32,000 nt of DNA from positions 240,001 to 272,000 of the forward strand of contig OW818675.1 of assembly GCA_942493095.1 (NCBI GenBank). Direction: 5' to 3'. Below, piece by piece: positions 8,921 to 16,814 of the stretch. Each line of letters starts with the position of its first letter. The stretch's first letter is position 1. The position numbers were made by a program, and so were the translations under genes. The DNA comes from Candidatus Electronema halotolerans. GTDB lineage: Bacteria; Desulfobacterota; Desulfobulbia; Desulfobulbales; Desulfobulbaceae. The notes beneath the pieces were generated by a model. It saw nothing but the letters and a program-made list of their open reading frames with translations, ran no database searches and was not told where the DNA came from.

Positions 8921-9831
8921 AGCTAATAAGATTGCAAGGAATCATACCTTGGGTGCATCATTATTATTGGTCGCATCCATTCTTTATTTTTCAGCAGATG
9001 ATCAACGAACGGCTAAAAAATATTGTTCAACTTGATTACGCTGGTGACAGCAGTTTTGTTCCTATTTTTGATCAATTTGATGCAGTCGAATCAGGTGCCG
9101 CAGATGTTGCCTTGGGTATTTCTTCCTATTACACGCACAGAATTCCTGAAGCAATGTGCGTCTTATATAGTCATCACTCTCCTGCTCAATTACGAACAAA
9201 TGGATTCTATGAGTATTTTCGTGAACTGCATCTGCGGAAGGGAAACGTTGTTTATCTCGCAAACACAGGTGGTGTCTGTAAAACTGCATTCCGACTTTTT
9301 TTCAATAAAAAAATAGCTGATTGTGATTCTGTCAAAGGACTCCGCGTCCGAACGCTACCGGTTTATGTTTCCTTAGTCAAAGCATTGGGCGGAATTCCTG
9401 TCAGCATTAAACCGACTGATCTTCTGGCCGCTTTGAAAAAGAACGAAATAGATGGTTATGGTTGGTCATACGGCGGCATTGCAAGTTATGGCTGGGAAAA
9501 TCTGACCAAATATGTGCTGGAGCATTCTTTTTATTCAGCTAACACCTGTTTGCTGATCAATAAAAGCAAGTGGGACTCTTTTCCTGCTGAAGTGCGGATA
9601 GAACTTGAACAGATTGGTTGTGATTTGGAACTGGAAGCAGAACGGGCAATGCGCGCATACAATAAAAATGAGGATGTTTTTCTCAAAGGATTGAATATAG
9701 ACTTTCTCTCCTTTTCTGATGAGGAGAAGCAACGTTTTATCAAAACAGCTTATGATGCAGGATGGTCAAGCCTGTCAGTTCAGGATGATGATGAGCTGAA
9801 TAAGCTGCAACTTTATTTAACAGGAGGATGA
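8917..9831 (+). CDS. DctP/TRAP-type solute-binding-protein homologue lacking a signal peptide
   Basis: DctP-like blocks seen by eye: ..AVESGAADVAL.., LKGLRVRTLP..VKALGGIPVSI...LLAALKKNEIDGYGW, and ..LLINKSKWDSFPAEVR. The N-terminus begins directly at the mature-domain equivalent, and no hydrophobic leader is present in any candidate start. My preferred start is the GTG at 8917 (GTGA overlap, preceded by GGGGAGAAG); the track ORF starts at 8899. Confidence 0.58.
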   Translation: MKLIRLQGIIPWVHHYYWSHPFFIFQQMINERLKNIVQLDYAGDSSFVPIFDQFDAVESGAADVALGISSYYTHRIPEAMCVLYSHHSPAQLRTNGFYEYFRELHLRKGNVVYLANTGGVCKTAFRLFFNKKIADCDSVKGLRVRTLPVYVSLVKALGGIPVSIKPTDLLAALKKNEIDGYGWSYGGIASYGWENLTKYVLEHSFYSANTCLLINKSKWDSFPAEVRIELEQIGCDLELEAERAMRAYNKNEDVFLKGLNIDFLSFSDEEKQRFIKTAYDAGWSSLSVQDDDELNKLQLYLTGG

Positions 9832-9833
9832 AA

Positions 9834-10565
9834 ATGAGTGACATCAAGGAATTCAAAGGCAACGAGCGTAATCAGTATCATGGCATGTCTGAATATTATG
9901 ATGAGGCAATGATGGCTGGTTACTATGACTATAAGTCAACGGCAGAATCCTTGGCTGATTTAATCAAGGACGGCGCAAAGGTTCTCGAAATAGGTGTTGG
10001 CACAGGTCTATTTTTGGACCATCTTTGTAAGTTGAGACCGAATTGCACCTATTATGGAGTTGATCATACAGATGCTATGATCAACAAGGCATTGGAAAAC
10101 GTAAATACTAATAAGTATCAAATACATCTGCTAAAACGTGATGTAATCAAGATGGAGTTCGAGAGAAAGTTCGATGTAATCTTTTCTCATGGTGGTGTGT
10201 GGGTCTTCTTGGAGGAAGTTCTCCTTAGTCATATTTTTGATGACGATAAAAATCGTCAAGGGCTAAAAAATATCAGACACCATTTGAAGAATGACGGGAA
10301 ATTCGTCATTAACATTCAGCCTAATCACTCAAACTCTGACACACCTATGGACAATGGCGTTGTGTTCAAGCAAAGAGTTCAAGAGGAAGAAAACTTTTCT
10401 TATAAGGATTATTGGTTTGAAAAGGATGGCAAAAAGCTGTCTGAGCAAAGATGCACGTATCGTCTATGGAGAAATGAGCAAATTGACAAAGTTCTGCGAG
10501 AATGCGGATTTAAAAAGACAGAAGTGACATCTGATGGCAAATTCCGTATTCTCACTCCATTATAA
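9834..10565 (+). CDS. Class I SAM-dependent methyltransferase (uncharacterised)
   Basis: Motif I VLEIGVGTGLF, then YGVDHTDAM, then FDVIFSHGG. AGGAGG at 9822-9827 is well spaced for the ATG at 9834; the alternative ATG at 9828 overlaps the upstream stop. Confidence 0.75.
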   Translation: MSDIKEFKGNERNQYHGMSEYYDEAMMAGYYDYKSTAESLADLIKDGAKVLEIGVGTGLFLDHLCKLRPNCTYYGVDHTDAMINKALENVNTNKYQIHLLKRDVIKMEFERKFDVIFSHGGVWVFLEEVLLSHIFDDDKNRQGLKNIRHHLKNDGKFVINIQPNHSNSDTPMDNGVVFKQRVQEEENFSYKDYWFEKDGKKLSEQRCTYRLWRNEQIDKVLRECGFKKTEVTSDGKFRILTPL

Positions 10566-10674
10566 TCGTCATTATTATTGAACCAGCAGTTTTTTTCAGT
10601 GAATCTAATCTCTGTTCAGGAGGAGCAGAGATTGTCGGCTGGTTGATCACTAACCATTACGGAGCATTATTCCT

Positions 10675-11838
10675 ATGTCGCGTCACCTTTTCACCTCGGA
10701 ATCTGTATCTGAAGGCCATCCTGACAAGGTGGCTGACCAGATTTCCGATGCCATCCTTGATGCCATCTTGACGCAGGACAAGCACGCCCGCGTCGGCTGC
10801 GAAAGCCTTGTCACCACCGGCTTGGCCATGATTGCCGGCGAGATCACCACCACGGCCTGGGTTGACATGCCGGACATTGTCCGCCAGACCATCAAGGAAA
10901 TCGGCTACAACTCCTCGGACATGGGCTTTGACTGGCAGTCCTGCGCAGTCATGACCACCATTGACAAGCAGTCGCCGGACATTGCCCAAGGCGTGAACGA
11001 GGGCACTGGTCTTGATTTGGATCAGGGCGCAGGCGATCAGGGCCTGATGTTCGGCTATGCCTGCGATGAAACCAGCGTCCTCATGCCTATGCCCATCACC
11101 TACGCGCACCGACTGGTGCAGCGGCAGGCTGAGGTGCGCAAAAACGGCACCCTGCCGTGGCTGCGTCCTGATGCCAAGAGTCAGGTCACGGTGGAGTATG
11201 AGGACAAGCAGCCCAAGCGCATTGAGGCTGTGGTTCTGTCCAGCCAGCACAGCCCGGATGTTTCCTATGATGACCTCAAGGAAGGCATCATGGAAGAGAT
11301 CATCAAAAAAATTCTGCCTGCTGATCTCATTGATGCCAAGACCAAGTATTTCATCAATCCGACAGGCCGCTTTGTCATTGGCGGGCCAGTAGGCGACTGC
11401 GGCGTGACTGGCCGCAAGATCATTGTTGACTCTTACGGCGGACGCGGCTCGCACGGCGGCGGAGCCTTCTCTGGCAAGGATCCGTCCAAGGTTGACCGCT
11501 CCTCTTCCTACATGGGCCGTTATGTGGCCAAGAACATTGTCGCCGCAGGCTTGGCCTCTGAGGCGGAAGTGCAGGTGGCCTATGCCATCGGTATCTCCCG
11601 ACCAGTCTCAATCCGGGTCAACACCTTTGGCACTGGCAAGGTCTCGGAGGAGCGGCTGACCGAGTTAGTCAGCCAGATATTTGACCTGCGGCCCAAGGCC
11701 ATCATCCAGCAGCTTGACCTGCTCCGGCCCATCTATCATCAGACTGCCGCCTACGGTCACTTTGGCCGCGAGCTGCCCGACTTCACTTGGGAGCGCACCG
11801 ACAAGGCCGAGGAATTGAAGGCTGCGGCAGGCATCTGA
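10675..11838 (+). CDS. metK: S-adenosylmethionine synthetase
   Basis: 387 aa with canonical [28 protein letters not shown] and TAAYGHFGR motifs. Confidence 0.97.
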
Positions 11839-11847
11839 CATCTTTTC

Positions 11848-11875
11848 GTAGGGGCGATTCATGAATCGCCTCTAC
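11848..11875. repeat. REP-like 28-nt palindrome GTAGGGGCGATTCA/TGAATCGCCTCTAC
   Basis: A 14-bp arm pairs with its partner with one G-T wobble. It lies 10 nt after the metK stop and belongs to the same family as 11891-11918. Confidence 0.8.
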
Positions 11876-11890
11876 AAATATTGCAACCCT

Positions 11891-11918
11891 GTAGGGGCGA
11901 AAAATTTTTCGCCCCTAC
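11891..11918. repeat. REP-like 28-nt perfect palindrome GTAGGGGCGAAAAA/TTTTTCGCCCCTAC
   Basis: Perfect 14+14 inverted repeat. It shares the GTAGGGGCGA...TCGCCCCTAC arms with the neighbouring element. Confidence 0.85.
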
Positions 11919-11943
11919 GTTATGTTTATTCAGGAGCAAATCT

Positions 11944-13230
<1,287 letters not shown>

Positions 13231-13820: not shown

Positions 13821-13968
13821 TGGCAGGGCTGTTTGTCAAGCGGCAAGGTGGAACGTATGTTCGAGAAATTCTGAAACGCAGGATCGAGTTTTGCGGGGAT
13901 GGGTGTTCGGAGAAAGGAGAGATTCAACGTGGGCAAACGATAAAGATGTTTGCCCAGCCTACGTGCTA
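13821..13968 (+). repeat. Repeat A1 (~148 bp) ending in the hairpin GGGCAAA-N11-TTTGCCC
   Basis: It shares GGCAGGGCTGTTTGTCAAG, CGGCAAGGT(G/A)GGA(A)CG, GAGATTCA(A/G)CGTGGGC and GCAAACGATAAAG..TTTGCCCAGCCTA with 14126-14257. The hairpin is at 13930-13954. Confidence 0.8.
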
Positions 13969-14121
13969 CGTGCTTTTCGCAAAAGTACTACCGTACTTTA
14001 ACCTGAACTACGGTAGTACTTTGATCCAAACTACGGTAGTACTTTTACCTGAACTACGGTCGTTGTTTTATCCAAATTACGGCAACGCGGAAACCCGGCC
14101 TACGGGCTGTTTGCCGACATA
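13961..14121. repeat. Phased tandem array, 23-bp unit (core CTACGGTAGTACTTT), about 5 clear + 2 degenerate units
   Basis: CTACGG/TTACGG recurs at 14007, 14030, 14053, 14076 and 14099, exactly 23 nt apart. Unit tails alternate between ..CCTGAA and ..TCCAAA. AAAGTACTACCGTA (13981-13994) is the exact reverse complement of TACGGTAGTACTTT (14008-14021). Confidence 0.85.
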
Positions 14122-14125
14122 AGCA

Positions 14126-14257
14126 GGGCAGGGCTGTTTGTCAAGAAGAGAGGCGGCAAGGTAGGACGCAGGTTCGGATTGTTCCGGGATAAACGGTCGG
14201 GGGAAGGGGAGATTCAGCGTGGGCGCGGGCAAACGATAAAGCTATTTGCCCAGCCTA
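14126..14257 (+). repeat. Repeat A2 (~132 bp), direct copy of A1
   Basis: Same blocks as A1, with the hairpin GGGCAAA-N11-TTTGCCC at 14226-14250. It is diverged, and A1 carries an extra ~23 nt. Confidence 0.8.
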
Positions 14258-14283
14258 TGGTGGTTTGCAAATCGACCTGATGT

Positions 14284-14559
14284 CTAGTTTCCTTTTAGCA
14301 CCTGCATAAATGGACAAAGGTTCCAGTCAAATCTTGCGTTAGATATTATGCCGGAACTATAAGTTTTCTTCACGCCACACTTCTCAATCCCTGTACAACT
14401 CTCAAGAGTCTTGCGTGTATTCGTTGCGATTATTTGTCCTATGGTATCAGCCTGCACACTTTGCGCTCTGATTATCGAATGCTTTATCTTCATAGTTTCC
14501 ATTCGGTTAGTGACAGGGCAGTGATACTCTTCTGAGGTGAATCGTATTTCTGGAGTCAT
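14284..14559 (-). CDS. Hypothetical 91-aa protein with four Cys, AT-rich orphan
   Basis: Intact ORF with an SD-like GAGAGGGGA before the ATG. I recognise no family. Its composition is clearly more AT-rich than the flanks. Confidence 0.45.
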   Translation of the reverse strand: MTPEIRFTSEEYHCPVTNRMETMKIKHSIIRAQSVQADTIGQIIATNTRKTLESCTGIEKCGVKKTYSSGIISNARFDWNLCPFMQVLKGN

Positions 14560-14589
14560 TCTTATCCCCTCTCGTTATAACTGATTACA

Positions 14590-14618
14590 ACTTAACTAAT
14601 TAACTTGATTGCTATCAA
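14590..14618 (-). promoter_or_regulatory. Candidate sigma-70 promoter for the 91-aa gene
   Basis: The minus strand reads TTGATA-17 nt-TTAAGT. The -10 matches only 3 of 6 positions, so this is weak. Confidence 0.25.
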
Positions 14619-14662
14619 GTAAAGCAAACAAATGGCGTTATCGTTTGCTCACGTGATTCCTC
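14610..14662 (-). repeat. Repeat A3: partial, inverted copy of the A1/A2 hairpin end
   Basis: The minus strand reads GAGGAATCACGTGAGCAAACGATAACG...TTTGCT, compared with GAGAGATTCAACGTGGGCAAACGATAAAG..TTTGCCC in A1. The stem is 14623-14629 / 14643-14649. It lies just downstream of the lipoprotein gene and may double as its terminator (followed by TTTACTT). Confidence 0.6.
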
Positions 14663-14685: not shown

Positions 14686-14928
14686 TCACTGCGGCCGACT
14701 CACACATTCATACTTCCTTCTGATATCCCTACTCTTCTTGCCGCCAGTAACCTTGATCACTTGCCCGGTATCGCAACGGCCATCGTTCTCCACATACACA
14801 ATCTGATTATAGGACAGAGAGCCGTTTGCAGGCATTGCTTGCAGCACCTTGTTCTGCCCTCCATGCTGACAGCCTGCAAGGAACAGAATGCTGGCAAGAA
14901 GCACCGCTGCATTGAGTAAAGACTTCAT
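14686..14928 (-). CDS. Small lipoprotein (80 aa), uncharacterised
   Basis: Signal peptide MKSLLNAAVLLASILFLAGC with a lipobox L-A-G-C. The mature ~60 aa has two further Cys (DGRCDTG, YECVS). SD AAAGGAAA. It starts 16 nt after the radical-SAM stop. The 182-aa track ORF is an artefactual 5-prime extension into the upstream gene. Confidence 0.7.
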   Translation of the reverse strand: MKSLLNAAVLLASILFLAGCQHGGQNKVLQAMPANGSLSYNQIVYVENDGRCDTGQVIKVTGGKKSRDIRRKYECVSRPQ

Positions 14929-14944
14929 GATGTTTCCTTTCGTG

Positions 14945-16798
14945 TCAATTGTTGTGCCAATAGAATTCAATGTTCTGAAAGGGCAGGTTGATCGCCTGAA
15001 TATGATAAAAGGCGTTCTTGCGGTGCTTGCTGTAATGATATTCCCGCAAGGCCTTGGTGGTGATGAACAGATTGTTGCGCACTCCCTCCAAATAGAACTG
15101 GGCATGACTGAGCAGCAGCCCTGAGATGTCGAGCAGGGCATAGTTGCCTTCCTGCTTGGCCGCCGCAAAGAAGGAGTTCTTGTAGAGCGAATAGTCGAAA
15201 ATATGCTCCTGCTTGCTGCGCTGCTCGTCGCCATAGACCACGGTCGTGTCGCGCAAGAGCATCAGATGCAGGTAATTGTTCACTTCGTCCTCGCAGGCCA
15301 AACGGAACGCATCCTCCCGCACACCCAGCAGCACGGTGCTCTGCTTGTCCAGCACCTCAATGTCCATTGCATTCTTGAGAATGGCTGAATGCAGGCGGTA
15401 TTCCACCCCGTTGACCCGAAGAAAGAACAGCTCGTTGCTGTACAGCGCCTGCAATGCCGCATCACGCTGGATGATTTCGGTTAAACGGTTGGCATCGGCA
15501 AACAGCTCCGGGCTGATCACCCGCTCCTTTTCCGTATAGGTCTGTTGCAGCTTCTTCAGGTTGTTATTGAGGAAAAAACGCTGGCTATATGCGGCAATCT
15601 TGTCTGCAGGCAAGGGCGGCCAGCGGTCAGGCGCATCCTGATAGAGCTGCTTTTGCAGCAGGCAGGTGTAGCTCTTCTTCAGGCCTGTCTCGTGCCGGAC
15701 AAAGGTGCAGCCAAGGTTGCAGTGCGGCAGCCACGGGCAGCGGGCGCAGTCGTCGTCCATGTCGAGCAGGTTCTCGTTGCGCTCAATCACGTTCCAGCCA
15801 TTGCTGACCACTGCTTCCACGCCGTCCGTGAAGATGTTGCCGTAGCGGTACTCTGGCGAGGACTGGCCGCGTGGACAGGAGAAGACCTCGCCGTCAAACT
15901 GGAGGAGGAAGAATTTGCCGCCGCAGTTGATTGCGGAGCAGCAGTATTCCGGGGTGAATTCCTTGAACCACTCAGTGCGGCAGGCGTGTTCCAGCGGGCT
16001 GCCGAGGAAAGCGCGTTTCACCGCCTGATAGAACTGCACCTGTTCCGTATCCGTGAGCATGGCCGCGCCCTCGTCCTGCGCGCTGAACGTGCTCCTGTTC
16101 TTGATTGAGTCAAAGCCAAACATGACATTGAAGCGGCTCATGTCCAAACCGATCTCATAATGCAGGTGCTTGATTTCGGCAATAAATTCATCTGCCGCAG
16201 CTAAGTGGGCGCGAGTGACCACGCAGGAAATCTTCTTGTTGTGCGGGTAGGCGGCCAGCAGCTTGAGGTTTTCCCTGATCCGGGCCAAGGTGCTGCGGCC
16301 CTGCTTGTCGCGGCGGAACTGCTCGTGCAGGCGCAAGGGCAAATCCACGCTGCCGCTGATCGAAACCCGATGCTTGACAAAGACTTCCCAGTGCCGCTGC
16401 ACATCAAGGAGATTGGTTTTGATATGCGGCGGACTGACCCGGAAGCCCTGCGCCTTAATCTCCTCGCCATAGGTCGCGTAATGGCGGGCGGCAATGCTGA
16501 ACAGGCCGTCAAGCAGCTTGGTCGGCAGGGTGGTGACTTCGCCGCCGTGAAAGGAGAGATTGAACGGCAGATAGCCGTGCGCTAAGAGCTGTTCCAAGGC
16601 GGTGTTGAGGGTGCCGAGCACTTTGTCCGGCTCCGGCCTGGCAGCGGTCAAGTCGCCCAAGTAGCAGTAGCGGCAGCTCATGTTGCAGAACTTGGTCGGC
16701 ACATAGAGCAGATGGATGGCTTTCTTGAACGGCATTGCAGGCTGATCCGCCTGTGCTTGCTCTGCGTTGTGAACTGCGGCGTGTTTTGTGACTGTCAT
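14945..16798 (-). CDS. Radical SAM / SPASM-domain enzyme (anSME/peptide-maturase-like) with a ~210-aa C-terminal extension of unknown function
   Basis: It has the CNMSCRYC (CxxxCxxC) cluster near the N-terminus and a GGE-like FHGGEVT. The SPASM-type Cys pattern is YCCSAINCGG...FSCPRG...CARCPWLPHCNLGC. Residues ~400-617 have no Cys motifs and match nothing I recognise. The start is ambiguous (TTG 16804, ATG 16798 or ATG 16735), and none has a good SD. Confidence 0.85.
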   Translation of the reverse strand: MTVTKHAAVHNAEQAQADQPAMPFKKAIHLLYVPTKFCNMSCRYCYLGDLTAARPEPDKVLGTLNTALEQLLAHGYLPFNLSFHGGEVTTLPTKLLDGLFSIAARHYATYGEEIKAQGFRVSPPHIKTNLLDVQRHWEVFVKHRVSISGSVDLPLRLHEQFRRDKQGRSTLARIRENLKLLAAYPHNKKISCVVTRAHLAAADEFIAEIKHLHYEIGLDMSRFNVMFGFDSIKNRSTFSAQDEGAAMLTDTEQVQFYQAVKRAFLGSPLEHACRTEWFKEFTPEYCCSAINCGGKFFLLQFDGEVFSCPRGQSSPEYRYGNIFTDGVEAVVSNGWNVIERNENLLDMDDDCARCPWLPHCNLGCTFVRHETGLKKSYTCLLQKQLYQDAPDRWPPLPADKIAAYSQRFFLNNNLKKLQQTYTEKERVISPELFADANRLTEIIQRDAALQALYSNELFFLRVNGVEYRLHSAILKNAMDIEVLDKQSTVLLGVREDAFRLACEDEVNNYLHLMLLRDTTVVYGDEQRSKQEHIFDYSLYKNSFFAAAKQEGNYALLDISGLLLSHAQFYLEGVRNNLFITTKALREYHYSKHRKNAFYHIQAINLPFQNIEFYWHNN

Positions 16799-16814
16799 CT
16801 GCAAGGGCGAGGTT

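Follow-up and report, generated by a model that had tools for sequence, protein, structure and literature searches.

A radical-SAM/SPASM enzyme with a family-specific C-terminal domain in Candidatus Electronema halotolerans: a partial copy of a cassette that may act on a poly-asparagine tail

Introduction

Radical S-adenosylmethionine (radical-SAM) enzymes with a SPASM domain are a main source of new peptide chemistry, for example that of sactipeptides, darobactin, triceptides and mycofactocin. Such an enzyme is encoded on the minus strand of a 32,000-nucleotide stretch of the genome of Candidatus Electronema halotolerans (GenBank assembly GCA_942493095.1, contig OW818675.1, positions 240,001 to 272,000), a member of the cable-bacteria clade. 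The whole stretch is called the window in this paper. The enzyme gene is followed by the gene of a small lipoprotein, and a reading of the window made from the sequence alone (the sequence-only reading) had proposed that the two might form an undescribed system of a maturase and its exported substrate. Comparison with related loci suggests a different partner. The enzyme family is accompanied in most loci by two other proteins, named c2 and c1 here, which the window lacks, and the poly-asparagine tail of c2 is the favoured candidate for the substrate.

Genes and features of the locus

The features of the window are collected in Table 1. Related loci are cited by their numbers (L001 and so on) where they have to be told apart.

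Table 1. Features of the window, in window coordinates
Feature	Position	Strand	Basis
Radical-SAM/SPASM enzyme gene	14945..16798	minus	Open reading frame, family matches, full-length homologues
CxxxCxxC motif binding the radical-SAM [4Fe-4S] cluster	16664..16687	minus	Invariant or nearly so in the 42-sequence alignment
SPASM region, cysteines C286, C287, C292, C308, C351, C354, C360, C364 and C379	15662..15943	minus	TIGR04085 match
Family-specific C-terminal domain, residues 388-617 (about 230 amino acids)	14948..15637	minus	No sequence or fold match
Spacer of 16 nt from the enzyme stop to the lipoprotein start, with AAGGAA ribosome-binding site	14929..14944	minus	Sequence reading
DUF6719 lipoprotein gene, 80 amino acids, lipobox LFLAGC	14686..14928	minus	PF20477 match and family alignment
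Repeat-rich, AT-rich junction past the enzyme-lipoprotein block	13822..14654		Repeat search
Cysteine-containing open reading frame of 91 amino acids	14284-14559	minus	No family, no homologue in related loci
SAM synthetase (metK) and S-adenosylhomocysteine hydrolase (ahcY) genes	10675-13230
Stretch of low GC content	7000-10600
CHASE2-adenylate/guanylate cyclase and FecR-domain protein genes	17706-21259	minus

The open reading frame (ORF) 14945..16804, whose stop codon is 14945-14947, encodes 617 amino acids if the ATG at 16798 is taken as its start, and this numbering is used throughout. The enzyme is probably shorter. The ATG at 16733-16735 (MPFKK), which gives a protein of 596 residues, is the likelier start because 16735 is exactly where the DNA homology to close relatives sets in, and most homologues have the same start. 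Hundreds of full-length homologues are found (E-values from 0 to 1e-183), the closest of them in Candidatus Electrothrix and Electronema, with 73-93% identity in protein and 77-88% in DNA. The ratio of nonsynonymous to synonymous substitution rates (dN/dS) is 0.08-0.17, and 0.08 against the closest relative. The gene is real and intact, far beyond chance.

The cluster motif of the enzyme is C38-x3-C42-x2-C45. The SPASM pattern consists of C286/C287, C292-x10-G303-x4-C308, C351-x2-C354-x5-C360-x3-C364 and C379, and its nine cysteines, all invariant in an alignment of 42 homologues, would be enough to ligate two auxiliary [4Fe-4S] clusters. The SPASM model of NCBIfam, TIGR04085, matches residues 292-379 with 40.2 bits against a cutoff of 27. 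The Pfam model Radical_SAM (PF04055) gives an E-value of 1.4e-5 and 25.8 bits, just below its gathering score of 29.5, and many radical-SAM models of NCBIfam align to residues 30-370. By motif conservation the enzyme belongs to the radical-SAM superfamily and to its SPASM subfamily (TIGR04085/PF13186), which is recognised by the cysteine pattern CX9-15GX4C ... CX2CX5CX3C ... C.

The C-terminal domain

The part of the enzyme that follows the SPASM region is a domain conserved as strongly as the catalytic core. It contains about 30 invariant, mostly polar residues, among them those of the motifs YGDExRxKQxHxxDY (residues 522-536) and KNAFYHxQAINxPF (residues 594-607). The domain has no match in Pfam, in NCBIfam or among the sequences of the PDB. 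An exhaustive phmmer search with it, covering 1.84 billion representative proteins, gave no more than 82 hits, which are either the C-terminus of proteins of about 600 amino acids or short sequences, probably fragments. The domain is thus restricted to this enzyme family.

An AlphaFold2 model of the domain, built on the 42-sequence alignment, has a predicted local distance difference test score (pLDDT) of 87.7 and a predicted template-modelling score (pTM) of 0.76. It predicts a beta-rich fold flanked by helices. Foldseek searches of the model against the PDB and BFVD returned nothing at E<=1e-3, and no template-modelling score (TM) exceeded 0.31. Weak fold resemblances are to the lipid-binding beta-sandwiches PDE-delta, Unc119 and RhoGDI, none of which is significant (E>=0.01).

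Relation to named radical-SAM families

No named radical-SAM family of NCBIfam fits the enzyme, every such model scoring far below its cutoff. The top match is DynA (79.1 bits, cutoff 450, residues 34-365), followed by anSME (TIGR03942; 78.6 bits, cutoff 349.45), AmcB (64 bits, cutoff 425), GrrM (TIGR04261; 63.7 bits, cutoff 310), PapB (55 bits, cutoff 340) and QhpD (TIGR03906; 53.5 bits, cutoff 453). The nearest named families, DynA, anSME, AmcB/GrrM, PapB and QhpD, are all SPASM enzymes that modify peptides or proteins. A profile of the 42 homologues matches only anSME, ChlB and CteB in the PDB, with the matches confined to the N-terminal core. PADLOC 2.0 gives weak matches to viperin (pVip) at residues 32-96 and a marginal match to PbeC (E 0.026).

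The best relative of solved structure is anSME (PDB 4K36), which has in common with the enzyme the radical-SAM core and a SPASM domain with two clusters. It acts on a protein substrate without a precursor-peptide recognition element (RRE), as the enzyme is proposed to do. The match is limited to profile positions 12-187, or about residues 33-208 of the window enzyme, and anSME is without the 230-residue C-terminal domain. QhpD, the other analogy drawn by the sequence-only reading, is a SPASM enzyme for a small exported protein, but its N-terminal extension is missing in the enzyme and no qhp genes are found near the enzyme in the window. Both anSME and QhpD act on exported proteins.

Much of what had been read from the letters alone is upheld by these comparisons. 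The CxxxCxxC core and the SPASM-type cysteine pattern are conserved in the 42 homologues, with TIGR04085 above its cutoff; the kinship to anSME and QhpD is not confirmed at the level of family, both models remaining far below their cutoffs. An N-terminal region of the size of an RRE is indeed missing, the cluster motif beginning at residue 38 (residue 17 from the likelier start), and neither Pfam nor NCBIfam gives a match to PqqD or an RRE in the enzyme, its C-terminal domain, c1 or c2. The C-terminal extension that could not be assigned is a genuine domain that stays without a relative in Pfam, NCBIfam, PDB sequences, PDB folds or BFVD folds, and only its description as free of cysteine was wrong, a partly conserved cysteine being present at residue 502. 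The absence of a sulfatase and of a CxPxR motif from the window had been stated as well; no sulfatase is annotated near the enzyme, either there or in the related loci, and the lipoprotein has no CxPxR motif. By its sequence, the enzyme is a member of a widespread, uncharacterised radical-SAM/SPASM family that is defined by its unique C-terminal domain.

The conserved partners c2 and c1

Loci of the enzyme family were taken from GTDB genomes, from look-ups of individual homologues and from JGI/ENA metagenomes, and amount to 53 distinct loci; scans of 60 loci used hidden Markov models (HMMs) built in this analysis. When the neighbouring ORFs of 16 genomes are clustered, c2 and c1 are the only genes conserved beside the enzyme. 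One or both of them adjoin it in about 46 of the 53 distinct loci. The order of the genes is rSAM-c2-c1 or c2-c1-rSAM (rSAM being the enzyme gene), and stop and start codons often overlap, in the manner of an operon. The cassette occurs in Desulfobulbales, Thiomargarita, Thiothrix, Methylococcales, Psychromonas, Pseudoalteromonas, Aliikangiella, Myxococcota and Campylobacteraceae. Seven loci have no adjacent c2 or c1. The contig ends at the enzyme gene in five of these; the remaining two, L046 and the window, look like true orphans. In the related loci examined, no biosynthetic genes co-occur with the cassette.

The c2 protein is an unannotated cytoplasmic protein of 105-155 amino acids, with neither a signal peptide nor a transmembrane segment. 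It has a conserved N-terminal domain of about 100 residues (LFR..LYxF; YLRFDG..I..L.P.YYLG) and a tail that reads N(6-28)-G-N(2-7)-G, sometimes with an additional -NN-G, in 40 of the 42 distinct complete copies. In these the terminal residue is always glycine; examples of the tail are ...SSNNNNNNNNNNNNNNGNNNNG and ...SANNNNNNNNNNNNGNNNG. The tail is devoid of cysteine and of aromatic residues. Alignment with hhalign shows no relationship of c2 to the enzyme family.

The c1 protein, also unannotated, is a membrane protein of about 270 amino acids that begins and ends with transmembrane helices, the first of them followed by a basic stretch. The conserved central domain (CYV.F.G, PL...C.YY, W.TK.KKP.KGMET) is basic and, according to the positive-inside rule, probably faces the cytoplasm. 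Weak matches to the Pfam family GIDE (PF12483) are found in 3 of 15 members, with a best E-value of 4.8e-5. The topology of a transmembrane helix, a soluble domain and another transmembrane helix is that of GIDE/MUL1, but c1 is without a RING domain and the match is below significance for most c1 members. Apart from this similarity of c1, neither protein has a match in Pfam, NCBIfam or PADLOC, or among the sequences of the PDB. Literature searches on radical-SAM or SPASM enzymes in connection with asparagine-rich or poly-asparagine sequences, with GIDE and with cable bacteria, and on DUF6719, found nothing relevant. The three-gene cassette is apparently undescribed so far.

The cassette resembles several repeat-targeting radical-SAM/SPASM maturases, reportedly described by Haft and others: GrrM/OscB-GrrA (Gly-rich repeat), HxsB/HxsC (His-Xaa-Ser repeats), the CXXX-repeat maturase and CefB (Cys-every-fifth). 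In all of these, as here, a single radical-SAM/SPASM enzyme adjoins a small protein with a low-complexity presumed target. The cassette differs from them in that the presumed target is an asparagine homopolymer punctuated by glycine, with no cysteine, histidine or aromatic residue, in that the enzyme family has its unique C-terminal domain of about 230 residues, and in that a third gene, that of the GIDE-like membrane protein c1, is constantly present. The scores of the corresponding models are far below their cutoffs.

Variant and phage-borne homologues

Variant cassettes are present in L049 (2942-3280) and L053 (3863-4177). Their c2-like protein begins with a sequence of signal or lipoprotein type, and its tail ends in N7-W or N6-W, not in glycine. 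Both are accompanied by a secreted protein of about 306 amino acids, and that of L049 also holds an ATPase resembling type IV secretion system coupling proteins and an HD-GGDEF protein, which are uninformative. A contig classified as viral, IMGVR_UViG_3300029664_000120 (L064, 5992-9130), encodes an enzyme homologue of 42% identity that overlaps an ORF of 128 amino acids ending in ...SSGGSSSNNNNNNNNNNNNNNR (SSSN14R), followed by a 333-residue zinc-ribbon protein in place of c1. The poly-asparagine partner therefore reaches beyond the c2 sequence family.

A full-length homologue of 34% identity, with the motifs of the C-terminal domain, is encoded by Campylobacter phage CAM-P21 (MW462221.2, 28053-29810; L062, 5986-7743). 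It lies inside the tail module, with the genes of the tail fibre and the tail sheath on either side, and is followed by a DUF1353 protein and a protein of 337 amino acids. Another homologue is found in a Campylobacter coli plasmid record (NZ_CP082878.1, 166056-167786).

In L001 a PIN_12 gene (5028-5999) is inserted between c1 and the enzyme gene. Other genes of defence or toxin type near the cassette are those of PIN and YoeB (L017, 16775-19699), of HNH and SIR2-NACHT proteins (L019, 9198-13794) and of a TIR-reverse transcriptase (L025, 9304-10258). Since toxin-antitoxin or defence-type genes often adjoin it, the cassette seems to sit in variable genomic islands.

The partial cassette of the window

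Neither c2, nor c1, nor any poly-asparagine coding stretch is found in the whole 32 kb of the window by HMM, tblastn and (AAY)n searches. The DNA homology to nine relatives of the cable-bacteria clade covers positions 16735-14686 only, a unit of 2.05 kb that comprises the enzyme and the lipoprotein genes. It stops at the start codon of the enzyme, and no remnants of c1 or c2 are found upstream of it in the window. In L022, the closest relative (93% identity in protein), 10 nt separate the end of c1 from the start of the enzyme. The window has unrelated sequence at this position and then the gene of a CDP-alcohol phosphatidyltransferase, a neighbour that is not conserved in any related locus.

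Within the cable bacteria the c2-c1 pair has moved several times relative to the enzyme-lipoprotein pair. It is upstream and adjacent in L017, L025, L027 and L022, upstream but with another gene in between in L001 and L023, and downstream in L003, L004, L024 and L055. Because the position of c2-c1 already varies within the clade, their relocation to another place in the genome is plausible; they may also have been lost. The window contains a partial cassette, in which the enzyme and a clade-specific lipoprotein are separated from c2 and c1.

The junction past the enzyme-lipoprotein block is built from two direct repeats of about 140 nt (13822-13961 and 14127-14257), a 23-nt unit present four times (13970-14084) and an inverted 26-nt copy (14629-14654), which pairs with 14224-14248, the two bracketing the 91-residue ORF. 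This repeat pattern is present only there in the window, and its core motif, GGGCAAACGATAA, is missing from all 61 related loci. The junction looks like a small mobile or cassette-like insert, and the enzyme-lipoprotein block is bounded by rearrangement scars. The 91-residue ORF was considered as an alternative substrate and rejected; it belongs to no family, has no homologue in the related loci and lies inside the repeat-bounded, AT-rich insert.

The DUF6719 lipoprotein

The lipoprotein matches DUF6719 (PF20477) over residues 8-79 (E=5.3e-11; 42.7 bits, cutoff 27), and its dN/dS is 0.12-0.17. As the sequence-only reading had noted, its gene begins 16 nt after the stop of the enzyme, and the mature protein contains the motifs DGRCDTG and YECVS, to which the two invariant cysteines, C52 and C75, belong. 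The two genes are probably co-transcribed, because the 16-nt spacer holds the ribosome-binding site AAGGAA; no terminator-like site was found between them.

The lipoprotein could be the substrate of the enzyme, matured before Sec export, for example by a QhpD-like thioether from cysteine to aspartate or glutamate at DGRCD or YEC. The short spacer with its ribosome-binding site favours this idea, and anSME and QhpD are precedents for action on exported proteins. Moreover, the enzyme gene is directly followed by the lipoprotein gene in each of the 11 cable-bacteria loci, even those that have c2 and c1 in another place, and the window has kept the pair without c2 and c1, both genes being under purifying selection. 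The linkage, however, is confined to the clade. A DUF6719 gene follows the enzyme only in Electrothrix/Electronema, in 11 loci and the window (L001, L003, L004, L017/18, L022-L025, L027, L055), and in two of them, L024 and L004, other genes intervene between enzyme and lipoprotein. HMM scans of the 53 distinct loci find no DUF6719 beside the enzyme outside the cable bacteria. It is missing next to the 83%-identical homologue of another Desulfobulbaceae locus, L002, as well as in Desulfogranum, Thiomargarita, Thiothrix, Methylococcales, Psychromonas, Pseudoalteromonas, Aliikangiella, Myxococcota and Campylobacteraceae. Conversely, the two more distant DUF6719 homologues that could be placed (51% and 53% identity) are in loci without a radical-SAM gene, and the scores of the enzyme with the QhpD and anSME models, as given above, do not support a QhpD-like or anSME-like activity.

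The cysteines of the lipoprotein point in the same direction. C52 and C75 are invariant also in the homologues without the enzyme, while D53, the acidic residue after the first cysteine, varies (D/E/S/K/P) and the lipobox is missing in some members. The simplest reading is a structural disulfide within a small exported protein, which fits better than a modification site. In Ca. Electrothrix scaldis (L017, 11871-12107) the DUF6719 protein is truncated, has lost the second invariant cysteine and ends, at its stop codon, in ...GGKAEQGHQKEV. Since the c2-c1-rSAM cassette beside it is intact, the lipoprotein seems to be dispensable even where the cassette is complete. The lipoprotein is probably a clade-specific operon passenger or accessory, not the substrate of the enzyme family. 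A lack of conserved linkage, which the sequence-only reading had itself named as evidence against its proposal, is thus observed outside the cable bacteria, although within them the adjacency is stable; the more general part of that proposal, an undescribed peptide- or protein-maturase system, is still the best reading, with a substrate other than the lipoprotein.

Proposed function of the cassette

The family, the domain architecture, the linkage of the cassette and the tail pattern of c2 are observed directly. The best explanation of them, to which we give slightly more than an even chance, is that the enzyme belongs to a three-gene cassette with c2 and c1 and modifies the poly-asparagine tail of c2, the copy in the window being partial. 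A more detailed version is put forward tentatively, as somewhat short of an even chance. According to it, the enzyme family would be the maturase of an undescribed class of ribosomal products, in which a new, family-specific C-terminal docking domain serves radical chemistry on the homopolymeric asparagine tail (N6-28-G-N2-7-G-COOH) of the small cytoplasmic c2, and the product passes to the GIDE-like c1. This chemistry would involve no residues but asparagine and glycine, for example as epimerisation in series or as Asn-Asn cross-links.

From the comparison of sequences we infer the substrate, the docking role and the chemistry. The C-terminal domain, in place of an RRE, would dock the N-terminal domain of c2, and the flexible Asn/Gly tail would enter the active site. 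There the 5'-deoxyadenosyl radical would abstract a hydrogen from asparagine (at C-alpha or C-beta) or from glycine, and the two auxiliary clusters of the SPASM domain would resolve the radical. The outcome could be epimerisation at C-alpha, an asparagine-derived C-C or C-N cross-link, or chemistry at the invariant glycine positions, and it would probably be repeated along the tail. The modified protein would then be handled by c1 at the membrane. A sactionine or cyclophane link would be excluded because the tail is without cysteine and aromatic residues. The strict pattern of the tail with its terminal glycine looks like a constraint of substrate or product.

A partial parallel is provided by DynA and DarE, the maturases of dynobactin and darobactin. 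DynA, a stand-alone SPASM enzyme, introduces cross-links into a short core, one of them at the C-beta of an asparagine. It is the top match of the enzyme in NCBIfam, but far below its cutoff, and the substrates of DynA and DarE are short peptides with Trp, His or Tyr as partners, of which the c2 tail has none apart from the W-terminated tails of L049 and L053.

Several points weigh against the modification of c2 by the enzyme. Adjacency is no proof of a substrate relationship, and the well-known cross-link chemistries of SPASM enzymes are not directly applicable to a tail that lacks cysteine and aromatic residues. The AlphaFold2 model of c2 is poor (pLDDT 49). No poly-asparagine ORF was found near the homologue of phage CAM-P21, where 35.8 of 39.7 kb were scanned. 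The cognate partners are missing from the window, and the enzyme may act otherwise here or be near loss. Finally, in all 11 cable-bacteria loci the lipoprotein has stayed directly downstream of the enzyme though c2 and c1 have moved, and there may be a clade-specific functional tie between the two.

The cassette could also be a conflict or defence module on mobile DNA, with c1 as a membrane-damaging effector, c2 as a sensor, decoy or regulator and the enzyme as producer of a viperin-like small-molecule signal or toxin. This is unlikely. The contexts are variable and often near genes of toxin-antitoxin or defence type (L001, L017, L019, L025), distant homologues are carried by a Campylobacter prophage/phage and by an IMG/VR contig, and the weak similarity of c1 to GIDE would agree with such a role. 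PADLOC, however, has no match for c1 or c2, and the match of the enzyme to viperin is weak and restricted to the cluster-binding region (residues 35-95). The auxiliary clusters of the SPASM domain, like the closest families by HMM score, speak for a peptide or protein as substrate, and the strict tail with its terminal glycine has the look of a constraint on a substrate or product.

An equally low probability is assigned to an enzyme that acts on a non-peptide, such as a lipid, a sugar or a cofactor precursor bound by the C-terminal domain, with c2 and c1 in structural or regulatory roles. Some SPASM/twitch enzymes act on small molecules. The resemblance of the C-terminal domain to lipid-binding beta-sandwiches and the phosphatidyltransferase gene upstream of the enzyme in the window are in keeping with this possibility, but the fold matches are at noise level (E>=0.01, TM<=0.31), the phosphatidyltransferase is not conserved as a neighbour in related loci, and the cassette has no co-occurring biosynthetic genes.

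Slightly less probable again is that the window enzyme is the decaying remnant of a broken cassette without current function. The absence of c2 and c1 from the 32 kb, the unrelated sequence and the repeat-rich junction that flank the block, and the existence of another apparent orphan, L046, would be explained in this way. The reading frame is intact, though, with the catalytic cysteines and the invariant motifs of the C-terminal domain all kept and a dN/dS of 0.08 against the closest relative, and c2 and c1 could lie elsewhere in a genome of a clade in which their position is already variable. The least probable of the alternatives, given the distribution of DUF6719 and the behaviour of its cysteines described above, is that the enzyme matures the adjacent lipoprotein.

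Other genes of the window

The metK and ahcY genes lie 1.5-4 kb from the enzyme; these names are presumptive, having been assigned from the sequence without a family search. Electrothrix YB6 (L001) has a same-sized ORF of 449 amino acids at the corresponding downstream position, a likeness of size and position alone. The proximity of metK and ahcY to the enzyme is probably a matter of housekeeping synteny rather than a functional link. The stretch of low GC content (0.37-0.44, against about 0.56 elsewhere) encodes two methyltransferases, a glyoxalase-family protein and a DctP-type solute-binding protein, and may be a horizontally acquired island. Upstream of the enzyme, the CHASE2-adenylate/guanylate cyclase (800 amino acids) and the FecR-domain protein (381 amino acids) are encoded by neighbours that are not conserved in any related locus.

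Significance

The cassette is present in at least four bacterial phyla and occasionally on phage-like elements. The window locus is a poor starting point for experiments because its copy of the cassette is incomplete and the adjacent lipoprotein is probably not the substrate. Cultivable hosts of the cassette exist in Pseudoalteromonas luteoviolacea, Psychromonas aquimarina, Desulfogranum japonicum and Thiothrix caldifontis, which makes the hypothesis directly testable. If the proposed action on the c2 tail is true, a target of asparagine runs and glycine would imply a chemistry not yet seen for the radical-SAM superfamily, and the enzyme family would represent a new, RRE-independent mode of substrate recognition.

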